Source of the DNA: Paraspadella gotoi
Lineage: Eukaryota > Animalia > Chaetognatha
Direction of reading: 5' to 3'
Assembly: GCA_051294375.1 (NCBI GenBank)
Contig: CM119268.1
Location: 19,979,611 to 20,011,535, forward strand
DNA: 31,925 nucleotides
Shown here: positions 3,895 to 31,895 of the stretch, piece by piece
Numbering within the stretch: the first letter of the stretch is position 1
Layout: each line of letters begins with the position of its first letter
The notes under the pieces: model-generated
What the model saw: the letters and a program-made list of their open reading frames with translations, nothing else
Told to the model about the DNA's origin: nothing
Database searches by the model: none
Position numbers and translations under genes: made by a program

Positions 3895-4940
3895 TGTGCT
3901 CATCTGCGACATCTCCGGCTCCCGGGCACGCCTACTCGTTCCGGCATCGTTGCGCCGACGCGTTTTCGACGCCACCCATGGAATCGCTCACCCGGAAGTT
4001 CGTGTATCCAAAAAATTCGTAACGACTCGCTGCGTGTGGCCATAAGTCTCTTCCGACGTCGCGCGTTGGGCGGCGTCGTCCGACACTTGTGCATGTGCGC
4101 GAAACTTTTGGACAGTGGTTCAAATTTTTGGAGAAGCGCGCGGACGTAGCGCTGCATCTTGGCGCGCTTCTCCAAAAATTTGAACCACTGTACAAAAGTT
4201 TCGCGCACATGCACATCGATCTGGTTGACCCGCTGCCAGCCGTTTCCGGCCACACGCATCTCTTAACGATGATCGACCACTTTACACGCTGGCCGGAGGC
4301 GGCGCCGCTCCGCGTCGCCTACGTCGCCGCCGCCTTCCTGCAAAACTGGGTCTCGCGATTTGGCGTCCCTTCAGTCGTTACCACCGATCGCGGCGCCCAA
4401 TTCACGTCCGAACTGTGGCGCCAAGTGGCCGCAGTCGTTGGATTTTATTAGATTGAAGCTGGCCGTCACTGACGAGCTCGCACCACCCGACCCACCTCCG
4501 GCACGCCCACGCGGTCATCCCCGTCTCTGGAAATGGAAGCGGCGCCACTCGCGTCTTCCACGACGCCGCACGTTGCTCGACGTCAATCCTTTTCAATTCC
4601 CGGCCTTTTGAACGTTCTTCCGACGATGCTGCAGCCGCCGGAAGATGACGACGAAAGCGACGACCCGACAAACCGGAGACTTTCTCAAGCCTTCTTCCCG
4701 CCCGGTCAAAGCCTTTGTGGGGGGGATGTGTGGACGAACAGCAACAATACGCAACCTCGGTCAAACTATTGACCTTACCAAACTTACTCTCGATCGCTTT
4801 CTCTCACTCTTTTTATGGCCAAACGTTGACCTTGTAAATACCATTGTAATAGACTTAGCATTTGAGCATTTTCATTGTTATTGTTTATAACCTTGTTGAA
4901 GAATAAAATCATTCATGATCTGAAACTTGTTGCGTCCACA
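3895..4940 (+). mobile_element. 5'-truncated, internally deleted relic of a Gypsy element related to 25693-30746 (integrase fragment, PPT, 3' LTR)
   Basis: Aligns to ~29205-29718 (..DATHGIAHP..; HIDLVDPLP..DHFTRWPEA..TTDRGAQFTS), then jumps to ~30236. PPT GTGGGGGGGATG precedes an LTR at 4729-4940 (TGTGGACG...CGTCCACA) that is a diverged version of the full element's LTR. Confidence 0.92.
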
Positions 4941-5515
4941 AAACTTTATTTTTCTCTCTAGATACTATTTCATTTTATTTTCTTTGAGTGGATGCCAGAG
5001 GCGGAGGGAACCTTCCGTCCGTCCGTCCGTCCGTCCGTCCGTCCCACCTTTGCAAAAAACACCAATTACTCGCAATTGGATGGATGGATTTAATGAAATT
5101 TTGTGTGTGGGTAGGGAAGTGTGTGATTGAGCTGGATATAAAGTTTCGATGGAATCGTCCGAGTGGAATTGAGTTTAAATGGAAAAAACAAAAAAATTAT
5201 AATTCACTATTTGAACACCAATTTCTCATGAGTGGATGGGGCGATTGACCTGGAATTTTGTATGTGAGTAGGAAAGTGTGTGATTGAACAGGAAACCAAG
5301 TTTCGATGGAATCGTTTGAGTGGAAATGAGTTTAAATGGATAAAAACAAAAAACCTCTTTCACTAATTGATTATGATTTTTTTACCTTTTATATTATATT
5401 GTAGTGGTAGTATTTCATACCCCACTACTCGTCCGAGAATCAACAGCACCTATGGCGCCGGAGGTAGCACGAGCTCCTCCCAACCCAAAGGACTCGGGTT
5501 CGCGCCCTGCTGATT

Positions 5516-5597
5516 CGCACAAGTAAAAGCGGGACGGGGCGTCTAACCCACCTGTAGTGTGGACTACAGCCCGATCTGAAGTTCGGGACCTTGTGTG
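5516..5597 (+). ncRNA. Twister ribozyme (P5-type permutation), family A 5' LTR
   Basis: P5 CGCACAAG/CTTGTGTG; GA-CGG; P1 GGCGTC; T^AA (5544/5545); CCC-AC; P3 CTGTAG/CTACAG; P4 CCCGA/TCGGG; L4 T-CTG-AAGT. T1 is CGG:CTG (one G-U) and T2 is AC:GT. Confidence 0.75.
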
Positions 5598-5940
5598 CAA
5601 CGGACGGTAAACTGCTCGCGGCATCGTCTTCCACATTGGTGAGCCACACGAAACACGCTGGCACGTTAATACACCTCTGCCCGGGCATGTTAACACACCT
5701 CTGCCCTCGACCATCGTGTGTGAAGACGGGAGCAGGAATAGGCAGCCCCTCCTAGAGTGCTCGGGCACAACGCGTGCATCATAGCCATCACACTTGCGCG
5801 GGTGTGTGATGCCTAGGGGGGATGTGTAGTGGTAGTATTTCATACCCCACTACTCGTCCGAGAATCAGCAGCACCTATGGCGCCGGAGGTAGCACGAGCT
5901 CCTCCCAACCCAAAGGACTCGGGTTCGCGCCCTGCTGATT

Positions 5941-6023
5941 CACACAAGTAAAAGCGGGACGGGGCGTCTAACCCACCTGTAGTGTCGGACTACAGCCCGA
6001 TCCGAAGTTCGGGACCTTGTGTG
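5941..6023 (+). ncRNA. Twister ribozyme (P5-type), family A 3' LTR
   Basis: P5 CACACAAG/CTTGTGTG; L4 T-CCG-AAGT pairs perfectly with GA-CGG (T1) and with AC (T2). Predicted cleavage T5969^A5970. Confidence 0.8.
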
Positions 6024-6810
6024 CAACGGACGGTAAACTGCTCGCGGCATCGTCTTCCACAATATGTATATGCAGGATGTATTAATGAATCAAATAATTA
6101 ATCAGTTAATTAATCAATTAGTCAACAAATTAATCACTAATTAATTAATCAGTCAATCAATCCGTCCATCCGTCCCACCTTAGCAAAAAGCCCCAATAAC
6201 TCGTGATTGGCTGGTTGGATCGGAATGAAATTTTGTGTATGGGTAGGAACATGTGTGATGAAGCTGGATATAAAGTTTCGACGGAATCGTGTGAGTGGAT
6301 ATGAGTTTAAATGGAAAAAAGATAAGTCGCATTTACTAAAATATTTTTACTTATTTTGACCAATAAATACTTGTGTGTGGGTAGGAAAATGTGTGACGAA
6401 GCTTGATATAAAGTTTCGGTACGAGTGGAAATGAGTTTAAATGAAAAAAATATGAGTCACATTTACTTGAATCTTTTTACTTATTTTAACCCATAATAGA
6501 TTGAGATGAAATTTTGTGAGCGGGAAGAAAAGTTTGTTAAGAAGCTAGATATAAAGTTTTGACGGAATTGTGCCAGTGGAAATGAGTTTAAATGGAAAAA
6601 ATATAAGTCACATTTACTTTAGTTTAAGGATATCGTTGATGAAAATCTGTATATAAATTATAATTAATTATTAAATATTAAAATTAATTAATTAATTGAT
6701 TAATTAATTAATTTCCGACATTGTTTGCTCAAACTTGTTTATATATATATATTATATATATTATATTATATACTATATTATATATTATTTTATATATATT
6801 ATATCTATAT

Positions 6811-7607: not shown

Positions 7608-7757
7608 GTGAATTATACCAATATAAGCAACATTCTGTGGCGGTATATTCACACCGCCTCACGTCCACCATCCGTCAGCCAAATCCATTGGCTCAGAGGG
7701 GGAACACACCATCCCAGGCGTAGTGTTCCATCCACAGTTCTAATGACTTCCCTCTGC

Positions 7758-7838
7758 GTTGGCAAAGCGAGACCGTCCTAGGGTAACCGCGCCAGTGACT
7801 GGAGGCGTCACTGAGGGTCGGAAGCCCCCAAAGCCAAC
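7758..7838 (+). ncRNA. Twister ribozyme (P5-type), family B 5' LTR
   Basis: P5 GTTGGC/GCCAAC; AAA-GCGA-GA-CCG; P1 TCCTAGGG; T^AA (7784/7785); CCGC-GC; P3 CAGTGAC/GTCACTG; P4 GGG/CCC; L4 T-CGG-AAGC. T1 is CCG:CGG and T2 is GC:GC. Confidence 0.82.
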
Positions 7839-8243
7839 AGTGAGATGCCCCATCCCAATGGGCATCACAGGCAACCCGGCTGTTGCCATAAGTGGTGAGC
7901 CCTACTATCGAACACGCAACCTTCTCAGGGTACGCTGCGACAAACGCCTATGCCCTGCCGACTTCGGTACGCTACGACAAACGCCTATGCCCCTGGGGTA
8001 CGCTACGACAAACGCCTATGCCCCCACAACTCGCGCTCTCTCTCTCTCCCACTATGGTAACAGTCTTGTCAGACACCTCTCAGGCTTGAGGAACCTGAGT
8101 GATGTCTTGGCCCAGGGATCCTGTGGCGGTATATTCACACCGCCTCACGTCCACCATCCGTCAGCCAAATCCATTGGCTCAGAGGGGGAACACACCATCC
8201 CAGGCGTAGTGTTCCATCCACAGTTCTAATGACTTCCCTGTGC

Positions 8244-8324
8244 GTTGGCAAAGCGAGACCGTCCTAGGGTAACCGCGCCAGTGACTGGAGGCGTCACTGA
8301 GGGTCGGAAGCCCCCAAAGCCAAC
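8244..8324 (+). ncRNA. Twister ribozyme (P5-type), family B 3' LTR
   Basis: Identical to 7758-7838. Predicted cleavage T8270^A8271. Confidence 0.82.
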
Positions 8325-8589
8325 AGTGAGATGCCCCATCCCAATGGGCATCACAGGCAACCCGGCTGTTGCCATAATTCTATCATTCCATCGGGAAACA
8401 ATACTGTCATCTCTATTAGTAATACGACTGCGGTAAATTATTTAACTTATTTCTAATCGTTTATAGTGAGGAAGGAACGGGTGACCAAAATCCCTTTAAT
8501 TCGTTTTCCTTTAACCCGATCACCTCCACGGTCCCCGACAGAAACACTACGTCAATATCAACATCATTATCCCTCTCCCTTCCCGTCAG

Positions 8590-8928: not shown

Positions 8929-9528
8929 TAGAGTGATGTGAAAATGATAAAATTTTAGAAAATTAAAATTTAGCATATAAAACATAAACATAAAAACCAT
9001 TAAAAATACTTTGGTAAATTTATTTTTTAATTTTATACATTAATGGGCACCAGTGAGCTATATTTATATATAGTAATAAGTATATAATAGGCTAAAATTT
9101 TAAAATTTTAAGATCGGATTTGGATTCCTTGCAAAAAGTTGATAGAAGAAAGTATAATTCTTTTTTAAAAATTATTTTATTAAGTTAGTCAAAAATGTAA
9201 AAAACTATATTTAAGACACCGATTTTCATTTTCCAGCTTAAAAATATAGTTTTTTGTAATTTTAACCTTCTTAAGGACATAATTGTTGAAAAAGATTTAT
9301 ATTTTCTTTTATCAACTTTTAACGAGGAATCTGAATCTGTTCTCAGAATAAAAAAAAAAACATTTTGAAATTTTGACATTATATAAGGGTAGTACTATAT
9401 ACAAAATAAGCTGACTGGGCTACTACATTTGTTAAAAAAGAAAAAAAACTTCAGATTAGTATTCACTAATATGATAGTTTTCAAGATATAATTGCTAAAT
9501 TTCAATTCCAAACTTTCACTTCACCCTA
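8929..9528. mobile_element. hAT-type MITE, diverged relative of the 610-bp family
   Basis: TIRs TAGAGTGATGTGAAA / TTTCACTTCACCCTA; 8-bp TSD ATATCTAA; internal similarity to 10719-11328. Confidence 0.82.
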
Positions 9529-10640: not shown

Positions 10641-11830
10641 ATGAAATTGGTACAACCAATATAAAAATTATCCATTCATTAATAAATGACGCCTATCTTG
10701 CTCCCTGACTTTGGACAGTAAGGCGTAGTAAAATTTCTAAATTTAACTTTAATTAAAATTCTAAAAGTGAGGAACGAACAACATTATACTAATGAACATT
10801 TATGTAATAAAAAAATTTAAAATAATTTTACAATTTACGCCAGTAGGCCATATTTATACTAGTACTTAACCAATAAATGTTAAAATTTCAAAACAGTTTT
10901 TTCTAAGATTTTTTTGCAGATTTAGATTCCTCATAAAAAGTTTGATAAAAAGAAATATAACTCTTTTTGAAAAATTCCTTCATTAAGTAGGTCAAAAAAT
11001 AGAAAAAGCTATATTTAAGCTGAAAATTTAATTTTTTATATATAAATATAGTTTTTTTAATTTTTAACCCACTTAATGAAAGAATTTTTAAAAATGATTT
11101 ATATTTTCTTTTATCAAGTTTTGACGAGGAATTCAAATCTGCAATCAAAATTAAGAAAAGCCTATTTTGAAATTTTTCGATTTTATAAGGATAGTACTAT
11201 ATATAAATATAGCCTACTGCGAAAATTAAAAAACAAAAAATAATTTTTTTTTACAAATTAATGTTCACTGATGGTGTTGTTCATAATTGACTTTTAGAAT
11301 TTTCGTATGTAACTTTCACTACGCCTTATTGGACAGGCTTTGGTGGTTTAAGGCCTCCATCACTCTTACAAGATAATGACATAGCAGGTCCCTGCAAGCT
11401 TTCAATCAAGACTCTTCACAGACTCGTTTATTCACTCCAGAGTACCTGGCTTCCCTATCAATGAAGTGGAAAATATTTCAAAGAATGTTTCAATTGTATG
11501 AAAAGACCACTCCCTTAAGTATTAGATCGGGAATACTTATTGTACTCCGCACTAGCATCAAAATACAAGGAGCTGAATTTTATGAAATTGGTACAACCAA
11601 TATAAAAATTATCCATTCATTTAATAAATAAGCTATCTTGCCCTGACTTTGGACAGGCTTTGGTGGTTTAAGGCCTCCATCACTCTTACAAGATAATGAC
11701 ATAGCAGGTCCCTGCAAGCTTTCAATCAAGACTCTCTCACAGACTCGTTTATTCACTCCCAGAGTACCTGGCTTCCCTATCAATGAAGATGGAAAATATT
11801 TCAAAGAATGTTTCAATTGTATGAAAAGAA
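10641..11830. repeat. ~320-bp unit in partial tandem, first unit split by the MITE
   Basis: ATGAAATTGGTACAACCAATATAAAAATTATCC... starts at 10641 and 11582. It also occurs at 22715 and 23032, and as a fragment at 19811. Confidence 0.85.
10719..11328. mobile_element. 610-bp hAT-type MITE
   Basis: TIRs TAAGGCGTAGT / ACTACGCCTTA; 8-bp TSD TTGGACAG at 10711-10718 and 11329-11336. Confidence 0.92.
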
Positions 11831-11905: not shown

Positions 11906-12068
11906 GATATGTAAATAAAAATCGTTTTTTGAAATATAAAAAACTGTTCTTCCTAAAACTGTAAATTTTAGATGATGACGAGAAACAATGAAAATAATGA
12001 CAATTAGTATTGAAGATATAGGTTACGTTATGTCAACAGCCGGGTTGTCTGTGATTGGGCATCTCACA

Positions 12069-12149
12069 GTTGGCTTTGGGGGCTTCTGACCCTCCGTAAC
12101 GCGTCCTGTCACTGGCGCGGTTACCCTAGGACGGTCTCGCTTTGCCAAC
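12069..12149 (-). ncRNA. Twister ribozyme in the solo LTR (T1 disrupted)
   Basis: GTTGGC AAA GCGA GA CCG TCCTAGGG TAA CCGC GC...GGG T-CAG-AAGC CCCC AAA GCCAAC. The L4 change CGG>CAG mismatches the middle T1 pair. Confidence 0.7.
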
Positions 12150-12184
12150 GCAGAGGGAAATCGTTTGGACTGTGGAGTGTGGAT

Positions 12185-12794
12185 TAAGGCGTAGTAAAAT
12201 TCCTAAATTTAACTTTAATTAAAATTCTAAAAGTAAGGAACGAACAACATTATACTAATGAACAATTATATAATAAAAGAATTTATAATAAATTTTACAA
12301 TATACGCAGTAGGCCATATTTATACTAGTACTAAACCAATAAATGTTAAAATTTTAAAACAGTTTTTTCTAAGATTTTTTTGCAGATTTGGATTCGTCAT
12401 AAAAAGTTTTTAAAAAGATATTTAACTCTTTTTGAAAAATTCCTTCATTAATTAAGTGGGTCAAAAATTAGAAAAAGCTATATTTTAAGCTGGAAATTAA
12501 CTTTTTATATATTAAATATAGTTTTTTTTAATTTTTAACCCACTTAATATAATAATTTTTAAAAATGATTTATATTTTCTTTTATCAACTTTTGACGAGG
12601 AATTCAAATCTGTAATCAAAATTAAAAAAAGCCTATTTTAAAATTTTTCGATTTTATAAGGATAGTATAAGTATAGCCTACTGCGAAAATTAAAAAAACA
12701 TAAAATAATTTTTTTTACAAATTAATGCTCACTGATGGTATGTTGTTCATAATTAACTTTTAGAATTTTCGTATGTAACTTTCACTACGCCTTA
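12185..12794. mobile_element. 610-bp hAT-type MITE, second copy
   Basis: Same TIRs as 10719-11328; 8-bp TSD GTGTGGAT at 12177-12184 and 12795-12802. Confidence 0.92.
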
Positions 12795-12882
12795 GTGTGG
12801 ATGGAACGCAACGCTTGGGATTGGATGAACGATGGTGGATGTGAGGCGGTGTAATATACCGCCATAACGTTTCATTTCTCAG

Positions 12883-15399: not shown

Positions 15400-16694
15400 C
15401 GACGATTTTTGTTTTTAATAAGTTTTTATTGGACTTTTTTAAAATTTTGCATTATATTGAGAAAACGCTTTGAATTAAGCCCGCGCTCTACCTGATTTGA
15501 ATAGTAAAATCAATACAGTTTCTGTCAATTGTGTTCAAAATTGAAAAAAAATGAAGGCTTGACTATGCAGTTTTCACCTAAAAAACCAGTTCATTTGATT
15601 GCTTTATCAAGCAATTAAGATTGCAAGAATTTTAATTTGCTTTTTTTCATCATGTAGAGAAGACATAAGGTTTCGGAAACTGTACTAATATGTATGATTT
15701 GTAATTAGTTAAATCGTTACTTATTTAAAAATCCCTGCCTTTTCTCAGTCTCATGTCGAATGGTTATTGCAGTATCTCCATTAAAATAGATTCAGGGATG
15801 AATCTTAATTCATATATCAAAAAAGAGCGATATTAAAAATATATTGATGCTGTAGATGCTCCAGAATATTTTTTTTATATTATAAAGTATTGATAAAAGT
15901 TATAAGGTTCTGGGTAACCTTTCAGTAAACAAAGTTATCATTTTTATTTACCTCTGGATGTAATATCAGAAGTATCAAACGAGTCCAAAAAAAATAAAGA
16001 TTTTGTTGAAAGGAAAGATAATGCATCATCACATTATGCAGCAACTCAAGCCTAGTTTACTTTATAGGGGATCAAAGATCATTTTTTGCTCAAAATCTGA
16101 TAAAAAATATTATGTCAGAGATATAATATTAATTAATTTTATTTGAGTAAACAAATAAAGATATTTAGACGTGAGATAGTATGATTAAAAGTACAAAAAA
16201 TATTTTGTTTATATTGTTTGGGTAACAGTATCATTAATTAAAATATATTTATAATATTATCTTTATAAAATTAAAAATTTTCAAAATAATTTTTTTACAA
16301 ATTTGTATTAAAGATTCTGATTCTTCATAAAAAGTAAAATCAAAAATATAAAATATGTTATTAGAGAGAGCAAAGAATTTTGAATTTGTTATTAAAAATT
16401 TTAATGTCTTCAGCGTTAAAAATGTATTATATGATAAAACATTTTGGTCATTTTTTATAGTTTTAATCTAAAAATATTATTTAACATATTTTATAAAAGT
16501 TCTTTAGTTTTTTTCAGCGAATCCGAAACTGTTCTTAAAATAAAAAAACAATTTATTTAAAAAAATTTTGATTTTATAAGGATATTACTAAAAAAAAATT
16601 TAATTAATGATATTGTTATACAATTTTTTTTTTTAAAAATGGTGAAGAGACAGTAATTATTATTATGTGTTAGTGATAGAACCGTTCAATATAA

Positions 16695-16768
16695 GCAGTC
16701 CCTGAGCTTCGGATCAGGCTGTAATACCGAGTTATAGGCGGGATAAGCGCCCCCTCCCTCTTAACTGC
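16695..16768 (-). ncRNA. Twister-like ribozyme, family C 3' LTR (degenerate)
   Basis: GCAGT TAA GAGG GA GGG GGCGCT TAT CCC GC CTATAA..TTACAG CCTGA T-CCG-AAGC TCAGG G ACTGC. T2 is intact; T1 has one mismatch. Confidence 0.62.
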
Positions 16769-17121
16769 CAGGCGACCACCAGGCTAAAACCCAAGACCTT
16801 TGGGTTGGGAGGCGAATTATTTGCCTCCGGCACCAATGGCCGCTGATGAACGGTTTGGTGAAAATTTTTAGTCCACCATACCATCCCCTTTCCTGTAGGG
16901 AGAAGTCTGTTGCGTCTCTTCAGTGAATTGTTGTTTGTTGGTGGAAAGTCATCACCAAGTTGAGGCATGTCGCCTGATGTGTTGTGGGCGGAAAGTGCAT
17001 CGCCAGGTTGAGGTATGTCGCCTGAAAGTGTTATTGTTGCTGTTGTGTTCAGAAGTCGGGCTCTACCTATGAAGAGACATAATATTATTATTATGTGTTA
17101 ATGTGGAACCGTTCATATAAC

Positions 17122-17195
17122 GCAGTCCCTGAACTTCGGATCAGGCTGTAACACCGAGTTACAGGCGGGGTAAGCGCCCGTCCCTCTTTAACTGC
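17122..17195 (-). ncRNA. Twister-like ribozyme, family C 5' LTR
   Basis: GCAGT TAAA GAGG GA CGG GCGCT TAC CCC GC CTGTAA..TTACAG CCTGA T-CCG-AAGT TCAGG G ACTGC. T1 is CGG:CCG and T2 is GC:GT. Confidence 0.7.
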
Positions 17196-18499
17196 CGGCG
17201 ACCACCGGGCTAAGACCCCGGACCTTTGGGTTGGGAGGCGAATTAGTTGCCTCCGGCACTAATGGCCGCTGATCGACGGTTGGTGGATTTTAGTCCACCA
17301 TAATGGCTTAATTATTTTTTATTACATATACAAAGGCAGAATAAAAACATTGTTCCATCGCTCAATCTTTTCATCACTCCACCCTAATGAGTAGTCCTTT
17401 TGATCAAAAAGAGGTGAAAACAGTTAGAGACAACCACTTTTGGAAGTAATTATATGCAATAAATAATTTTATGCTGTTGAGAAATGATATTTTTATTTAA
17501 TCTTAAGGAGGTCATATTACCTATTTAATAGCAAAAAAATATAATTGATAACGAAATTAAACTTTTCCAAACCGCGACAATTTTTTTTTCCATCATGGTA
17601 TTAAATTGTTCTTTTGTTTTCATCTTTCCTTATTCTTCAATATCATCTTTTGATTCTTTTATTTTTTTCCTTTTCTCAATTTTTTACTTTATTTTTTTTC
17701 TCGACAAAGATATTTTCGCTCATTTTTAACAGTGATCGTTGTTTCTGTTTTAAACGTTTGTTTTGTTTTTTTTCATTAAAGTTTTGACATGAATTTTATT
17801 TTATTTTTTTTGCGGATCAATTTTGCCTTCAGACTGACGAATAGTGATTACTGATTAGTATTTTTTTTTTAGTTTTCGTCGTCGTCGTCGTCGTTGATTC
17901 GTACTCAGCGGTCTGGTCTCGGCGGAAGAGTGGTCTGTGCAAGACGAGGATGACAATCGAGCAAACACGACTCGCTTTTCAGCGCTCGACCGCTCGACCG
18001 CACCCGGCAATTTCGTGGCCACAGTATTCTTTTTTTTTGGCGGGCCGTTTGCTCTCAATTTTAAATCTCATTTTTTGTTTCATTCACATTAATTAATTGA
18101 TGCTAAATTTAGTATAATTTTTATTTTTCATCGATCATTTTTTATCGTAATCTTTATGGAAATACGCGTCTGTCAGCTATATGCCTCCCATTTTCCAATG
18201 AAAGCAGAATTTCATTAACAACTAAGCCTTTTACCTAAAGTATCATAGTAGAAGTCGAGTGGCATAAAAATCGTGCGTTCCATCCCGTTGTATATTAGCT
18301 TTAATAAATTGAATTTTTAGCCTCCTTTAAATTTACTGTGCCCTCTAGCTTTCGACTGTCTTTGGTGTCCGATTCCACTGTGTGATCGCACGAGGAGGAA
18401 AATTGAAACTGAATTTGCTTCCCGGCTGGCTCCCCCCCTCACAGTTTTCCTCTCCCACGGCTCCTACTCGCATGACCCCTTCCCGGTTGCCACCCACCC

Positions 18500-20557: not shown

Positions 20558-20649
20558 ATTAGAGAATTGACAAAGTTTTTGTTTGCAACGAATTTTATTT
20601 AATTATAAATAAAATTCGTTGCAAACAAAAACTTTGTCAATTCTCTAAT
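20558..20649. repeat. Perfect inverted repeat, 44-bp arms with a 4-nt loop
   Basis: 20558-20601 is the exact reverse complement of 20606-20649. Confidence 0.95.
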
Positions 20650-22714
20650 ATATTCTTATACCGGCCAAGGTAGAATGATGGCAATATTGTTAATATTAAG
20701 TTTCAAAAAAATCCGATCATAAATATAGAAAATATTAACCAAAATCTTCGGAAAATATACCCCTTCTTAGGCAGATTTTTGCCATAGAAGATTTTTCCCG
20801 AATCTGACTCCCCGGGTTTGAAAACTCTTAGAATTCCGAATCGTTAGCTCTCTTTTACTTTAAATAAAAATTTCACCAAAATGACTAATTCACTTTCCCA
20901 TGATCGTATCATATCAAAATGACTAAATAAAATGTAAAGAAAATTTTGAGAGCCCTTCAGACACTTTGTCAAAGGATTCCAAAATTGGATGTCATTTGTT
21001 GAACAGGAACATACCTTAGTCACGGTTTATATCGTTTTCAAGGAAAAAATCCCTTTCATTTCTGTATAAAAATCAGAGATAGAAAATTTTTCCATCCAGA
21101 AGCAGTCTATTTGTTCTGGCTTGTTTGATATCAAGATGTTGATGATTTGACAAGAGAAAAAAAAATGCGAGCCCTTCAGATACAACAGGATTGGAATCAA
21201 GTGTTTTATACATTCGATTGTATTTCGCGGAATTTTTCCCAGGAACGTTTATATTGTTTGGTAGTCAAATTTGAACAACAATCTTCATTGAAAATATCTT
21301 CTTCGATCTCTAAGAACGATGTCGGCTCCTAACATATATTAATTTTTTAATATTTATTTATAAATAAGAAAGGCTAAAAAAATTTTTACGATTTTTTATT
21401 TTTAAGTTCAGATTCAGGTAGCTTGCAAAAAGTTGTCTAACAAAGTATAATTTTTTTTATAATATTTGATCCTAAGTGGGTAAAAAATATGAAAATCTAT
21501 TTATCATCATTCAATAATTTATTCCTTTTTCTTAATTTGGACCAAGAAAACATAAAACTTTTTTAAAGTTGTAGTTTATATTTTTTATTTAACTTTTTAT
21601 GCTCTATAAGAATCCTTTAAAAAAAGTTAAGATTGATTAAAAAAAAATTTATCATTATATATTATTAGTAATATTGTAATTTTGATAGCAATAATAAAAG
21701 CATTAAAATCGAACTTTTTTTTAAAATTCTTTTTGTTACCTGAAAGTAGACTTCAAGACTAAAGTTTTGAACCCCCGCCCCTATTGAATTTAATTTAATA
21801 GAAGATTTCTATCTTTATAACCTCGTTTTTCCAAAAATATTGCCAGAAAGAGCCAATTTTGTAAAAGGCCCTCTATCTCCAATACAATTTTTTTCATGAC
21901 AGATTGAAATTTAAAAAAAAATATCTATAACAAGTATTAATGTTATCAGAAAATAACTTACTGAAAAGTTCACTTTTATTTTTTCCCTTTAATTAATTTT
22001 ATTTTGAAAAAATTTAAAGCCAACGTTTAGACGAAACCACTCCTATCCGAAGCTGCAGACAACGCCTGCAGAAAATTGTATAAGATTTTCTAGTAGTGTA
22101 TCAAGATGGATTCAGATTTTCAAAAACGTTTACACAAGTGATAACACATATATATACTTTAATATACTTTAATTTAAAACACTTTTTATTCGATTTGAAA
22201 TTCTCAACATGAGAGATCCCGGTCGATTTTTATCTGGCTTTTAAATTATGTAAATTAGCTTACGATCGAATTTGTCAGATAACGATTGACGCTCTTTATT
22301 CGCGTAATTTTAAACGTTTTATTATTGTAATATTATAAATAATTAAATATTAAAATTTTTAGAATATATATTTTATAAATATAAATAGTTATAGTATTTA
22401 TAATAATATAAATAAGACAAAAAATAGCATTTAAACGAGAGCTTGAATGCTTCTTATCTAAATGAAGAATTCGAACATATTTTTGCATAAAATAAAAAAA
22501 TAACTATTTTGCTTGCTTAAAATCATTATTACATATAATAAACTTTTATAAATTGTATAATTCAATCGTTTAAGTTATCGTTATACGTGCTTTAATAAAT
22601 AGGTAAATATGAAAAAACTTGATAACTAAGATGAAAATAACCAATAAAAGTAAAATATTAAAAAAAATAATAAAAATATTAATATCATTAAAAATATTAT
22701 TTAACAATAATAAT

Positions 22715-23105
22715 ATGAAATTGGTACAACCAATATAAAAATTATCCATTCATTTAATAAATAAGCTATCTTGCCCCTGACTTTGGACAGGCTTTGGTGG
22801 CCTCCATCACTCTTACAAGATAATGACATAGCAGGTCCCTGCAAGCTTTCATTCAAGACTCTCTCACAGTCTCAATTATTCACTCCCAGAGTACTTGGCT
22901 TCCCTATCAATAAAGTGGAAAATATTTCAAAGAATGTTTCAATTGTATGAAAAGACCACTCTCTTAAGTATTAGATCGGGGAATACTTATTGTACTCCGC
23001 ACTAGCATCAAAATACAAGGAGCTGAATTTTATGAAATTGGTACAACCAATATAAAAATTATCCATTCATTTAATAAATAAGCTATCTTGCCCCTGACTT
23101 TGGAC
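22715..23105. repeat. ~320-bp unit, about 1.2 tandem copies
   Basis: Same unit as 10641-11830, without the MITE (single TTGGACAG empty site). Confidence 0.88.
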
Positions 23106-23939: not shown

Positions 23940-23964
23940 NNNNNNNNNNNNNNNNNNNNNNNNN
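23940..23964. other. Assembly gap (N run)
   Basis: 25 Ns. Confidence 0.99.
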
Positions 23965-24975: not shown

Positions 24976-25014
<39 letters not shown>

Positions 25015-25023
25015 AATTAACTC

Positions 25024-25292
25024 ATCACGTCAATGAATGACTAGCATCGCATCAATGAATGACTATCATCGCATCAATGAATGACTATCATCGCATCAAT
25101 GAATGATTATCATCCGATCAATGAAGGACTATCATCGCATCAATGAATGATTATCATCGCATCAATGAATGACTATCATCGCATCCATCATTTGGTTATC
25201 ATCGCATCAATCCTTCGGTTATCATCGCATCAATATTTGGTTATCATCGCATCAATATTTGGTTATCATCGCATCAATATTTGGTTATCATC
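25024..25292. repeat. 22-bp minisatellite, about 12 copies
   Basis: Unit ATCGCATCAATGAATGACTATC grading into ATCGCATCAATATTTGGTTATC. Confidence 0.92.
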
Positions 25293-25992
25293 AAAAGTAG
25301 GCTCGATCCCTATTGCTTTTAAGATTTTTTTTTATCATTTTCTTAATTTATGATCTTCCCAGATCTGTGCAAAAATTTTAATAATATTTAAAGTATTAAT
25401 TGTAATTTCGCTATAGAGAGGCAGTGCAAGAACAAAAACACTTATTTTTTTCAGAATGACGTGAAGGAAAATACTTTAATACTAATCACATTAATTATTG
25501 TGAGTATGTACAAATAAATATTACTGTTGAGATAAGACAGTGCAGATTTTAATTTATTTGCTAATATTTTGATATATATTGAGAAATCCTTTGTCCTTTA
25601 ATCTCATTTGCATGAAAATTTTCAAATTACTTGTTTCACTATCTTTTATTTTTTATTTTTATATTTTATGAAAGATTTACCATTTAATCTATTGTGGACG
25701 AACAACTACAACACGCAACCTCGGTCAAAACTGAACTTACCAACCTTACCCTCGACCGTTTTCCCTCATTTCTCTTTATGGTCAAACTTTGACCTTGTAA
25801 ATATCTATTGTTATAGACTTAGCATCTGAGCCTTTTATTGTTATCGTTTTTAACCTTGTTGAAGAATAAATCATTCTTACTCTGAAACTTGTGTCGTCCA
25901 CACGTGGTGAGCCCCGTGAAAAACAAAACAAATAAAACAAACCAAAAAAATAATAAAAAATCTCTCAACTCATTTTTTTTTTTCCCTCTTTG

Positions 25993-27206
25993 ATGTCCCG
26001 TCGACCAAGCACCTTCCGTCCTCCATCGCCAGCCGACGAAGAAGAAGAGACAATGCCAGTAACGACTCGCAACGCCTCTCATTCCGACGGCGCCGGCCAC
26101 GACGAGGCGTTCCACGACGCCGCTGCATCCTCATCTACCCCAAATCTCGAAAACAAAATCGAAAAACTTTTTGAAATGATTTACGAGTTGAATTCAAAAT
26201 TTCCTCCATCACTGAGAGACCAACTCCTTCATCAGCAGACGCCAGCACCGCCTCAACGGAACTGCCTTCCCCACAGGAAGATAATGGCGCCGGTGACGCC
26301 GCCCCCGCAGGGGACGCCGCCCGCCCTCGTCCTTCCTCCGACGCCCCTGCTAGAGACGAAACCCAAAACTGACGACCTTTGACCCCGACCACATCGAGGA
26401 GTGGTTGGACCACACTGCTGTGGAATTTGGCGCCACCGGCGTCACCAACCCGGCGGAGAAGAAGGCGCAAATCCTCAGCGCCATCCCTATCGCCCGCCAC
26501 CGGCTGATTCCACACGCTCTGCGCATCGACGAAGGTCTCGACGCCCACAACAATCTTGTCGCCCACTTAAAAAACATTTATGGTGAAGATGCCAACCGGC
26601 GCGCCGCAAAGGCGTTGAAGATGACGTCGCTGAAAGGCGTCACCCCCTCTCAACACCTTTCTGCGATTGACGCCGTCCTTGAAGGCCTCACCATCGACCA
26701 CATCAAGGCCGCCATCTTGGCCGCTGCCCTCCTCAGAGCGTGAGGGAACACGCCGTCAGGAAGGACAAGAAGCCCGCCGACATCGCCAAAGATGCCGACG
26801 AGTTCTTCCTCCCTTCCGGCCAACTTCGATGCTCCGATCGCGCCTCAACTCCGTGAACGCCGTCACCTCCATTGAAGTCACAGTGGACGAGCCACTGGAG
26901 ACTCCAAACGAATCGACTGATTCCGACGACGCCGCCTTCTCTTATGCGAACGCAGTCCGCCGACCGCCGCCGCGCTCAACGCAACGCCCTTTTTCGCAGC
27001 AGCGTCAACTGCAGCAACGCACGCAGCAGCAACGCCGCCCAATCTTGACGCCTCGTTCCCCTCCACATCGCGAACCGCCTATAGGCGAAGCTAAGTGCTT
27101 TTACCATTACAATTTCGGCCCCAACGCCTTCAAATGCCACGGGACTAATCGCGACGGCCGCCCGTGCCCAATGGCGCCGTCAAACGCCAACGCCAGCGGC
27201 CGCTAG
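25993..27206 (+). pseudogene. gag: gag (frameshifted as assembled)
   Basis: Split over three ORFs. Contains TFDPDHIEEWLDHTAVEFGATGVTNPAEK and C-terminal CFYHYNFGPNAFKCHGTNRDGRPC; TAG at 27204-27206. Confidence 0.85.
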
Positions 27207-30200
27207 TCGCCCACGTCGCTGGCCAAAACGACTCTAAACTCTTTCTAGTGCGCGACCCGACGCCGGCCTGGAGTGGCCGACCGCGCCGCCGCCTAAAGCG
27301 AATCCTGCCGCCGTCGAGGCGGCGCTCCCGCCGCAAACGCTCCGCCACTCCGCGCCGCCAACGACACGCCCATCGAAACCTTTGGCATTCGAGAAATGGG
27401 GATTAGACTGGGAAAACGCGTTTTCCCTTATCTCGTCATTATCGCCGACGTCGCCACGCCCATTCTCGGCGCCGACTTTTTGATGGAGCATCATCTCGGC
27501 GTTGATCATCAACGCCGTATCCTCCTCGACCTCGACGACTACATGGTCATTTCTGGCCATGCCCACGACGCCGCCTCAGCCGCGGCGCCGCCCCGCGTTT
27601 TACAGTCCGCGATGCCTACTCCGCGCTTCTTGATGAGCGACCGGAACTTACAAAGCTCGTCTTCAACTCGGCGCCGCCCAAGCACGGCGTCGAACACCAT
27701 ATCCCAACGAAAGGTCCGCCCGTCTTCGCCCGCGCCGCCGTCTCGCCCCCGATCAGCTTGCCGCCGCCAAAGCCGAGTTTGAAAAAATGTTGGAACTCGG
27801 CATAATCCGACGATCCACTTCCGCTTGGGCGTCGCCGCTTCACGTTACACGGAAACCCGATGGCTCTCTCCGTCCATGCGGCGACTACCGGCGCCTCAAT
27901 GGCGTCACCGTCGACGACCGCTACCCAATTCGCCACCTCATGGACTTTAACGCCGACGTCGCCGGGAAGACGGTCTTCTCGAAGATTGACCTTTGCAAAG
28001 GTTACCACCAGATTCCCGTTGCAAAAGAAGATCGTCACAAAACGGCAATTATCACACCGTTTGGTTATACGAATTTCTCTTCATGCCATTTGGTTGAAAA
28101 ATGCCGGTCAGGACTTCCAACGTATGATGGATCAAGTCCTGAGCGGCATCCCCCATGTTTTCGTTTACTTGGACGATCTCCTCGTAGCGTCTCACTCACA
28201 CGAGGAACACCAAGAAGACCTCAAACGCGTCTTCAACGCCCTCGCCAACAACGGCCTCATTGTCAATCGCGCCAAGTGCGTTTTCGGCGCATCCAGCCTC
28301 GAGTTTCTCGGCTACAACGTCGACAAAGATGGCGTTCGACCACTTCCGGCAAAAGTGGAGGCGCTACGTGCGATGGCAACGCCCACTTCCGTCAAGGAAC
28401 TTCAACGCTTCCTCGGCGTCTTTAATTATTATCGTCGTTTTGTTCCCCACGCCGCACACCATCTCGATCCACTTCTCGAAGTCCTCCGTGGGAAACCGCG
28501 CGCGCTTAAGTGGGCGTCGCCGCAAGACGCCGCTTTCCAGGCAATCAAAGATGCACTTGCAGACTCCACGATGCTGGTACACCCCATCGACGGCGCCCCT
28601 CTCGCTCTCACAGTCGACGCCTCCGACGTTGCTGTCGGCGCTGTCCTCGAACAGCTCGTCAACGGCTAATGGCAACCTCTTGGTTTCCATTCCAAGCCGC
28701 TGAAGCCAAACCAGCGCAAATGGCCTCCCTTCGACAAGGAGCTCCTCGCCGCCCACGCCTCGATCCGCCACTTCCGTCCATATCTTGAAGGGCGCCGTTT
28801 TACTCTTTTCAGCGACCATATCTCGCTCGTACCGGCGCTGAGGAAGAAGGCGGAGCCTCACACAATGAGGCAGACATATCAACTGGCGGGCATCGCCGAA
28901 TATACCGGCGATATTCGCCACATCGCCGGGAAAGCCAACGTCGTCGCCGATGCACTCTCTCGCCCGCCAATGAAAACCCCGTCCCCGCCGCCAGCGTCGC
29001 CAATCAACGCGAACCAAACCGCGCCAGCCTCGAACGTTCAAAAAGCGCGTGACGACATCGCCGCCACCGTCAATGCCGTCGGCGCCCTTCAAATCAATTT
29101 TGAGGCAATGGCGGCAGATCAGGCCACCGACGACGACGTACAGAGGCTCCTCAATGACCCTCACACAGCACTCCGTCTAAAAAACGTTCCAATAAGGAAC
29201 ACAACGCTCGTGTGCGACATTTCCGGTTCGCGGGCACGCCCACTCGTCCCTATGTCATGGCGCCGACGCGTTTTTGATGCCACCCATGGCATTGCTCACC
29301 CAGGGGTTCGCGCATCAAAGAAACTGATTACAACGCGTTTCGTTTGGCCATCCGTCTCATCCGACGTTGCGAGGTGGGCGTCATCATGTGACACATGCCA
29401 GCGCGCCAAGACCAACGTCATGTCCGCGCGCCTCTCCAGCATTTTGAACCACCTTCAAAACGATTCGCCCATGTCCACATCGACCTCGTCGGACCACTAC
29501 CCGCTGTTTCTGGCCACACACATCTCTTGACCATGATCGACCGCTTTACGCGCTGGCCGGAAGCGGCGCCGCTCCGCGACACCTCCGCCGCCTCAGTTGC
29601 CGCCGCTTTTTTACAGAACTGGGTCTCCCGTTTCGGCGTCCCTTCCGTCGTCACCACTGATCGTGGCGCCCAATTCACGTCGGAATTGTGGCGCCAAGTG
29701 GCGGCAGTCGTTGGCTTCGATCCCTCTACAACAACCGCCTACCACCCCCAATCCAACGGGATGGTAGAGCGTCTCCATCGAACGCTGAAGGCGGCCCTTC
29801 GCGCTCGCTGTGACGCCGCGGGAGAAAACTGGCTGGCGCAACTTCCCTGGACTCTTTTGAGCCTCCGCGCAACTCCACGTGAGGATTCCGACGCCTCACC
29901 CGCCGAATTGACGCTGGGCGAGTCACTCACGCTCCCCAGTGAGCTACTTCCGGTTCCAGCAACCGACGTCGACGCCGCCGCTCGCGCACAAATCCTCGAC
30001 AGTCTCCGAGCTGATGTTGCCTCATGCAGCCCCTGCCCGCCGCTTGGCACGCGGCGCCGCCCTCTCACGTCCCGGAAACTCTCGCTGACGCCGACCGTGT
30101 CTACGTCAGACGTGACGGCCACTCGACGCCGCTCCAGCCTCCCTACGACGGCCCTTACGTCGTGCGTGAACGAGGACCGAAAACCTTCAAAGTCTGAAAT

Positions 30201-30579
30201 CCCGGGCCGCGGCGTCGAAGTCATCTCCGTCGACCGATTGAAGCCGGCCGTCACTGACGAGCTCGCGCCTCCTGACCCACCTTCGGCGCGCCCACGTGGC
30301 CGTCCCCGTCGAGTCTCTGCTCCCTCCACCCGTATCCCCGCCTCCGGAAACGGAAGCGGCGCCACTCGCGTCTTCCACGACGCCGCACGTTGCTCACGGA
30401 CAATCCATTTCAATTCCCGGCCTTTTGAACATTCTTCCGACGATGCTTCAGCCGCGAAGATGACGACGAAAGCGACGACGCAATTCAATGATTTTCTCAG
30501 CCTTCTCCCCATCCGGTCGAAGCCTTGGTGGGGGATGTGTGGACGAACAACTACAACACGCAACCTCGGTCAAAACTGA
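27164..30579 (+). pseudogene. pol: pol: protease, reverse transcriptase, RNase H, integrase (frameshifted as assembled)
   Basis: ILGADFL (PR); WASPLH..RPCGDYRRLN..KIDL.KGYHQIP and YLDD (RT); LTVDAS (RH); HGIAHPG..CDTC, HIDLVGP, TTDRGAQF, HPQSNGMVER and YDGPY (IN). Several frameshifts and a TAA at 28667. Confidence 0.95.
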
Positions 30580-31660
30580 ACTTACCAACCTACCTCGACC
30601 GTTTTCCCTCATTTCTCTTTATGGTCAAACTTTGACCTTGTAAATATCTATTGTTATAGACTTAGCATCTGAGCCTTTTATTGTTTATCGTTTTTAACCT
30701 TGTTGAAGAATTAATCATTCTTACTCTGAAACTTGTGTCGTCCACACTATTCTTTAATATTATAGTGCGGTAAAAATTTAAAACGTAAATATTCAATAAT
30801 CCGCTTTACATTTAAAAAAATTAACTTCATATACTTATTTAAGTACATGGAAAGTACAGGAATCACAGACAGGCCAGGCCAAACTCTGATATCGATCCGG
30901 CCTACTGAATGTGTATTTTATGGCCCATATGTTTCAAGTTTTGTTTTTTTTGGATCACTGTGACCCCTCCTCCCTCCTTCTTCCCCCTCTCTCCGCCTTT
31001 ATCTCTCCAATCCCCTCCCTTCTCCTCCTCCTTCCTCTTTCTCCTCCTCCCTTCGCCTCATTGCGTATCATCGACCAAATCGACCAAAATCTTGGGTCAT
31101 TCCTCATTTATTATTCAGTGTAACTGCCGCGTGGGGCATCTGTCGTCAAGTTCCCCTCGCGTTGGACCTTGTCTCTCTCCCCCGCCCCTTTCCCTATCTC
31201 TCTCTCCTCTTCTCTCTGACTTTGCACTTTCTCAATTGCGACTATGAAAGCGCTGTACGTGGCAAAAAATTTCATTGTCCATGTAAACAGTAGTCGGGAG
31301 ACGAAGCGGATTTTTTTATTCGCTCCATTTTTAGCTAATTCTGATTAACGAAAAGGACAACTCTGCTAAATACTACTTTAAACAAGTACTTTTTTATCTG
31401 AACACTGACCCCTTTTTAAGGCTCAAATATCTGAATTAGTGATTCCAATAATTCTGTTTAAGAGCCTAATTGGGTTGAATTTTATACTGAATATCTGGTC
31501 TCTCATTGTAGTAGATGTTTTGATTTATTCTCACTATGAGATTAAAGACGAAGACTTTTACATCAACGATTGATTTTTATTTGTCAGACATGTTACGGCT
31601 TTTTGACTTGTCAACTTTAAATTAATTCATAAGTGAACTATGAATGATATAAGGAAAATA

Positions 31661-31895
31661 CCGCGCTCAACGCAACGCCCTTTTTCGCAGCAGCGTCAAC
31701 TGCAGCAACGCACGCAGCAGCAACGCCGCCCAATCTTGACGCCTCGTTCCCCTCCACATCGCGAACCGCCTATAGGCGAAGCTAAGTGCTTTTACCATTA
31801 CAATTTCGGCCCCAACGCCTTCAAATGCCACGGGACTAATCGCGACGGCCGCCCGTGCCCAATGGCGCCGTCAAACGCCAACGCCAGCGGCCGCT
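31661..31895 (+). mobile_element. Exact 235-bp copy of the gag 3' end (26970-27204)
   Basis: Base-for-base match by eye, from CCGCGCTCAACG to CAGCGGCCGCT. Confidence 0.93.

Follow-up and report, generated by a model that had tools for sequence, protein, structure and literature searches.

Dimer-dependent cutting has already been shown for hammerhead ribozymes, and a twister version would, judged from the literature searched, be new. Axolotl hammerheads with one base pair and a palindromic tetraloop, or with two pairs and a tetraloop, were reported to be weak alone and much better as dimers (PMC7229834), and a two-copy hammerhead logic was described for Penelope-like elements (PMC6765202). The locus studied here resembles these dimeric type I hammerheads of amphibian retrozymes and Penelope-like elements in its short palindromic helix by the cut site, its arrangement of copies in tandem at intervals of a few hundred bases and its predicted two-copy fold (PMC7229834, PMC6765202). 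The palindromic minimal helix beside the cut site was observed in 7/8 of the ribozyme-like cores, and tandem pairs were found in all of the families A, B, C and D. The locus differs in that its ribozyme is a twister and that the gain from dimerisation, which was measured for hammerheads, is a prediction here (PMC7229834). In addition, helix III of the hammerhead is structurally required, whereas P1 of the twister is reported to be dispensable (PMC5408937).

The plant LTR retrozymes, whose anatomy is described in several sources (PMC4918200, Cervera et al. 2016; also PMC7761336 and bioRxiv 10.64898/2026.07.22.740005), are similar in being non-coding, with a ribozyme per LTR, a 4-bp TSD, a PBS and PPT shared with Gypsy, a GC-rich unit and solo LTRs (PMC4918200, Cervera et al. 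2016). They differ from the elements described here in the host, which is of animal type here, in the ribozyme, which is a type III hammerhead in plants and a twister here, and in the unit, which is ~600-1000 nt in plants and 425-486 nt here (PMC4918200). The PBS here is that of a neighbouring Gypsy element, unlike the tRNA-Met type of the plant elements (PMC4918200).

With the type-P5 twister (Rfam RF02684), the cores share the order of parts, the GA, the U^A, L4, both pseudoknots and helices P3-P5. Unlike that type, they have a loop-less palindrome of 5-8 nt as P1 instead of a 12-34-nt hairpin, score below the Rfam thresholds and lie inside retroelements. The T-variant twisters of Perere-3 in Schistosoma mansoni also belong to a retroelement of an animal and depart from the standard P1, but they are of type-P1, lie at the 5' end of a non-LTR element and derive P1 partly from the target site, and no dimer is mentioned in the accessible text (PMC8501958). 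No report of dimeric twisters or of twisters in LTR retrozymes was found in the literature searched, which had most subscription papers outside its coverage, and the accessible texts of PMC10085705, bioRxiv 10.1101/2022.07.19.500677 and PMC5680766 contained nothing on dimeric twisters.

Twister-like cores and the elements that carry them

The window, that is, the whole stretch of 31.9 kb that was analysed, is AT-rich and packed with repeats, and it is the whole basis for our statements about the host genome. Strict cores were defined by a descriptor for the type-P5 order together with a P5 helix and a U at the cut site. The descriptor had 10 matches in the window, and 8 were strict cores (two in A, three in B including one in a solo LTR, two in C and one in D), compared with a mean of 0.135 (maximum 2) in 200 block-wise dinucleotide shuffles. 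The matches at 5079 and 6499 were rejected, being without P5 and without U at the cut site.

All 8 cores had the permuted type-P5 order with termini in P5, and contained 6-9 pairs in P5, 3 pairs in P2, accompanied by a bulge in A, C and D, and at least 3 in P4. The GA, the U^A and the U and A of L4 were kept in 8/8 cores, as the descriptor requires, and the base following the cut-site A deviated in both C copies. T2 was complementary in every core (GC or AC with GC or GT). T1 was fully paired (3/3) in 6/8 cores, with one mismatch in two decayed copies, and it covaried between families, with CCG or CTG facing CGG, CGG facing CCG, and CCA facing TGG. The CCG/CGG form was also found in phage P5-type twisters, for which 51 of 66 loci passed the helix filter. 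These pair counts were made without the MAFFT alignment of the 8 cores, which placed family B out of register.

The Rfam gathering score was reached by none of the cores. The family D core scored 25.8 bits with Twister-P5 (gathering 37.6), the family B core gave a partial twister-P1 match of 15.2 bits (gathering 67.2), and the A 3' LTR had no Rfam twister match. At E<=1, the scan of the whole window gave neither a twister match in C nor any hammerhead. Rfam microRNA matches in the window were rejected as hairpin or low-complexity artefacts; a near-perfect, AT-rich inverted repeat of 86 nt (20561-20646) was a source of such spurious matches. The window has N runs at 1174-2170 and 23940-23964, and ORFs across them are artefacts. 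Judged from their letters, the cores appear to fit the twister fold except in P1, as a variant and not as standard type-P5 members.

Table 1. Positions of the retroelements, twister-like cores and other repeats in the window.
Feature	Position	Strand	Details
Element A	5400..6061	+	LTRs 5400-5635, 5825-6061; PBS 5637-5645; PPT 5815-5824; TSD ATAT; cut-to-cut 425 nt
A 5' LTR twister core	5516..5597	+	P1 GGCGTC 5538-5543; predicted cut after 5544
A 3' LTR twister core	5941..6023	+	P1 GGCGTC 5963-5968; predicted cut after 5969
Element B	7636..8376	+	LTRs 7636-7890, 8122-8376 (99% identical); PBS TGGTGAGCCC 7893-7902; TSD ATTC; cut-to-cut 486 nt
B 5' LTR twister core	7758..7838	+	P5 GTTGGC/GCCAAC, T1 CGG/CCG, T2 GC/GC
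B 5' LTR P1 TCCTAGGG	7776..7783	+	predicted cut after U7784
B 3' LTR twister core	8244-8324	+	P1 TCCTAGGG 8262..8269; predicted cut after U8270
D tandem array	10641..11829	-	320-nt unit, 37% GC
D twister core	11633..11696	-	P1 AGGCCT 11676-11671; T1 CCA/TGG; T2 AC/GT; predicted cut after 11670
Second D core		-	P1 AGGCCT 11356-11351; split by MITE 10719-11331
MITE, two copies (92% identical)	10719-11331, 12185-12797		inverted ends TAAGGCGTAGT
B solo LTR	12029..12866	-	TSD ACGT; interrupted by MITE 12185-12797
B solo-LTR core	12149-12069	-	P1 TCCTAGGG 12131-12124 kept; T1 mismatch
Element C	16643..17302	-	LTRs 88% identical; TSD CCAT; degenerate PBS; PPT; cut-to-cut 427 nt
C 5' LTR core	17195-17122	-	P1 GCGCT 17177-17173
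C 3' LTR core	16769-16694	-	P1 GGCGCT 16751-16746; G-G mismatch in T1
Further D copy	22714..23105	-	small core deletion spanning P1 end and cut site
Broken Gypsy element	25693..30746	+	RT, RNase H, integrase domains; TSD CTAT; PBS TGGTGAGCCCCGTG; PPT GGGGGATG

Elements A, B and C each had two LTRs, 4-bp TSDs, a PBS and a short internal region (Table 1), and A and C have the appearance of LTR retrozymes with twister-like cores. Each of these two has a PPT, and no clear PPT was seen before the 3' LTR of B. In the internal region of B, a ~34-nt unit is repeated three to four times in tandem (7925-8020). The LTRs of A and C were homologous, with 155 identities and an alignment score of 166 compared with a shuffled maximum of 78, and the scores for A-B (87) and B-C (78) were within their nulls. 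C is a decayed homologue of A, with a 5-nt P1 in one LTR and a T1 mismatch in the other.

The PBS of A, B and C matched that of the broken Gypsy element, with degeneration in C, and the PPT of A and C was of the type found in that element, which is thus a candidate for the helper family of A-C. It is only from these shared signals that we infer a dependence of A-C on the Gypsy family. The Gypsy LTRs were 98% identical, and the descriptor scan found no twister core in them. The nearest named relatives of its integrase were mostly invertebrate, and the relatives spanned molluscs, crustaceans, insects and others. By a motif check without a tree, its Gag contained CX2HX9C, with a final spacing of 9 compared with 3 in the CX2HX9CX3C of the CsRn1 clade. 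A Gypsy-related fragment ends at 3898-4940, a 235-nt exact duplicate of the gag 3' region (26970-27204) was located outside the element at 31661-31895, and a minisatellite with a 22-nt tandem unit was located immediately upstream of it (25000-25300).

A self-complementary P1 at the cut site

The P1 segments were GGCGTC in A, TCCTAGGG in B, GCGCT and GGCGCT in C, and AGGCCT in D, and in each core this segment fills the whole space from the T1 3' strand to the U^A cut site. With G-U pairs allowed, P1 was fully self-complementary over 6-8 nt in 7/8 cores, compared with 2/50 among the shuffle matches with a P1 of 4-8 nt. The exception was the C 5' LTR, whose 5-nt P1 is palindromic only in its GCGC core. 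The centres of the palindromes differed among three unrelated lineages (CG, TA and GC), and two P1 positions differed between A and C, with pairing kept by both changes. Because the stem of any hairpin is self-complementary, only the two inner pairs, which are impossible in a hairpin with a loop of at least 3, were counted. All six inner pairs over the three lineages were complementary, for which the probability by chance was ~0.003, as calculated after A-C had been seen and with D found later.

The initial annotation had given the P1 letters and coordinates of B, A and the C 3' LTR correctly, and each of these is self-complementary with G-U pairs. It had also counted three families; the palindrome was indeed found in the LTRs of A, B and C, but the homology of A and C reduces them to two independent lineages. 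For family C, the self-complementarity held for GGCGCT of the 3' LTR and not for GCGCT of the 5' LTR, which is not a full palindrome. Tying the palindrome to LTRs proved too narrow, as family D is a tandem repeat without visible LTR marks. This family was absent from the initial annotation and surfaced as a weak Rfam Twister-P5 match. Its AGGCCT, found after the hypothesis was set, is a perfect Watson-Crick palindrome in two copies, and LTR ends, PBS and PPT were looked for in its 320-nt unit and none was seen.

The D copies with minus-strand ends at 10641, 19805 and 22714 share an end motif, CCAATTTCAT, ~70-80 nt past the predicted cut. Their variable starts and shared end resemble the tails of Penelope-like elements, with no linked ORF shown. 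Both MITE copies sit within twister-bearing elements, one in a D core and the other in the B solo LTR, and decayed relatives of the MITE were located at ~9050-9405 and ~21391-21500.

To set the short P1 beside that of other twisters, we used as controls 137 phage and prokaryotic loci from three pattern scans (54, 17 and 66), of which 102 passed a P2/P4 filter. The 48 distinct P1s in these controls, which are non-eukaryotic, biased to canonical L4 sequences and partly interrelated, were 12-34 nt long (median 20), and 45 of them formed hairpins below -3 kcal/mol. A loop-less P1 was found in 0/48 and a P1 of 8 nt or less also in 0/48; among the 35 loci that failed P2 or P4, five parses had a P1 of 8 nt or less. 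Within those limits of the controls, natural P5 twisters appear to keep a strong P1 hairpin and the motifs of the window do not. A scan for phage twisters with short P1, over 22 of 64 parts of the collection, gave at least 120 loci, and the two that passed the helix filter were marginal and not palindromic. Pattern scans found no relatives of A-C in viral contigs; 14 metagenome matches to A-C were all judged to be chance on inspection, and one further match was not a twister by inspection. One control contig carries two P5 twisters ~6.9 kb apart. At the level of sequence, the palindrome holds up: it exceeds chance expectation and sets these cores apart from typical P5 twisters.

Predicted pairing between tandem copies

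Pairing between copies is the best explanation of the palindrome. In the reading that we prefer, to which we assign a probability of about 0.55, the palindrome stands where the P1 hairpin would be, and two copies would pair into a strand-swapped double twister, boosting cutting. A loop-less P1 would have to be a palindrome because, in a direct repeat, the same letters supply both P1 strands. Family D and the controls raised our estimate for pairing-enhanced cleavage to this value, and that for a strict gate to a level at which it is still only tentative. The evidence for the palindrome comes from 8 cores in one window.

Isolated P1 segments were modelled at +2.7 to +6.4 kcal/mol as hairpins, consistent with the earlier remark that P1 is too short for a good hairpin, and at -6.3 to -11.0 as self-duplexes. 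Stable tetraloops are of the GNRA, UUCG and CUUG types, and none of these was present in the P1 segments. At 1 M, the swapped dimer of seven single copies lay 9.7-13.4 kcal/mol below two monomers, a margin that shrank to 3.0-3.7 kcal/mol without the P1 duplex. With both cores enforced in whole elements at 37 C, the swap had an advantage of 1.9 kcal/mol in A, 6.8 in B and 0.9 in C (with 14 flanking bases), and one of 6.1-8.9 kcal/mol in core-to-core stretches; when P1 of element A was kept unpaired, the preference was reversed (-246.3 vs -251.3). The unconstrained fold of A was the swapped form, with P1-P1' at 0.83, and that of B had P1-P1' at only 0.01 and the swapped P5 at ~0.35. When the units of A and B were folded as circles, the ribozyme fold was 6.6 and 9.1 kcal/mol above the minimum. 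The models exclude both pseudoknots, tertiary contacts and folding kinetics, and a gain in duplex energy is built into any palindrome, so they show feasibility and not use. An exchange of P1 strands between the LTRs had been proposed at the outset; nearest-neighbour models do prefer the swapped fold, in which P5, P2 and T1 exchange partners too, beyond what was claimed.

The swapped fold is a modelled one, and we infer cleavage, a gain in rate, circles and mobilisation as follows. A tandem transcript would have the order a1-p1-b1-spacer-a2-p2-b2, where a is the 5' half, p the palindrome and b the 3' half, and the swapped fold would be fully nested, with a1/b2, p1/p2 and b1/a2 pairs. The 5' half that is swapped would include the P5 strand, the P2 strand, the GA and the T1 strand, and would pair with the 3' half of the other copy, for which the palindrome may serve as a toehold in strand exchange. 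Formally, the inner core would be a twister of type P1, with the spacer enclosed by its P5, and the same core would hold the ends of the released unit together. The double twister would cut faster than a lone copy, and the two cuts would release a unit of 425-486 nt with the PBS (plus the PPT in A and C), which could then, by the route of the plant LTR retrozymes, be circularised and be copied by a Gypsy helper. A released unit or solo LTR, with its one ribozyme, would be partnerless and cut more slowly, so that the circle would be spared.

An all-or-none gate is doubtful, because P1-less twisters have been reported to cut. It also counts against such a gate, and against a dimer in general, that transcription would reach the first copy ~430-490 nt ahead of the second, which may leave time for the first to fold and cleave by itself. 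A P1 of one pair with a tetraloop is sterically sufficient for a monomeric twister. Silent solo LTRs are in our judgement rather unlikely. The suggestion of efficient cleavage on two-LTR transcripts only, with quiet solo LTRs, is so far unsupported, and a review reports an almost wild-type cleavage rate for P1-less twisters (PMC5408937). The caveat attached to it, that some twisters tolerate a minimal P1, pointed in the right direction but was understated in view of that review and of the CHiTA data, in which the length, stability and defects of P1 were without effect on cleavage, for type-P1 forms only (PMC5408937, PMC11662667). P1-less cleavage is termed 'inefficient' in another source (PMC8501958), and the literature on the need for P1 is therefore mixed.

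The palindrome could instead serve a different contact between RNAs, for example a kissing loop starting dimers for packaging, template switching or ligation, while monomers cut well and P1 is dispensable, which we consider unlikely. Retroviral dimer-initiation sites are also 6-nt palindromes, located in loops. The Gypsy-like PBS in A, B and C makes dimer packaging plausible, and the dispensability of P1 in the literature fits as well (PMC5408937, PMC11662667). However, the palindrome occupies the exact P1 slot in every family, including D, and Gypsy packaging cannot explain D, which is without visible PBS, PPT and LTR ends.

There is a small chance that the palindrome is a neutral remnant, left when the loop and the upper part of the stem were deleted from a long P1 hairpin, with a loop-less stump that the monomer tolerates. 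A central deletion in any hairpin yields a palindrome; the long P1 hairpins of typical P5 twisters may be the ancestral state, and P1 had no measured effect in type-P1 twisters (PMC11662667). This explanation nevertheless requires symmetric deletions in three lineages with no later decay, and it has to face the inner-pair probability given above and the differences between A and C, both of which keep pairing. That the motifs are inactive or merely twister-like, which would make the dimer question void, is very improbable: the unreached Rfam gathering scores, the bulged 3-pair P2 in A, C and D and the T1 mismatch in 2/8 cores speak for it, but the GA, U^A, L4 U and A and T2 are kept in 8/8, T1 covaries, its CCG/CGG form occurs in phage P5 twisters, and P2 defects are tolerated by twisters (PMC11662667).

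Implications for retroelement twisters

With pairing between copies as the preferred reading, a wider pattern can be proposed tentatively. Dimer-gated twisters may be present in unrelated retroelements, namely Gypsy-dependent LTR retrozymes and tandem Penelope-like repeats, where a palindrome would have taken over from the P1 hairpin, only two-copy precursors would be cut and the circle and solo LTRs would be spared. The logic of the double hammerhead would then have arisen convergently in another class of ribozyme and in the LTR retrozymes of animals. Should the palindrome gate cleavage, this would account for Rfam missing such motifs and would give RNA engineers a small switch that responds to copy number or concentration. 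P1 would then gain a function despite its dispensability in vitro, and the gate would show how a very fast ribozyme survives within a circular RNA.
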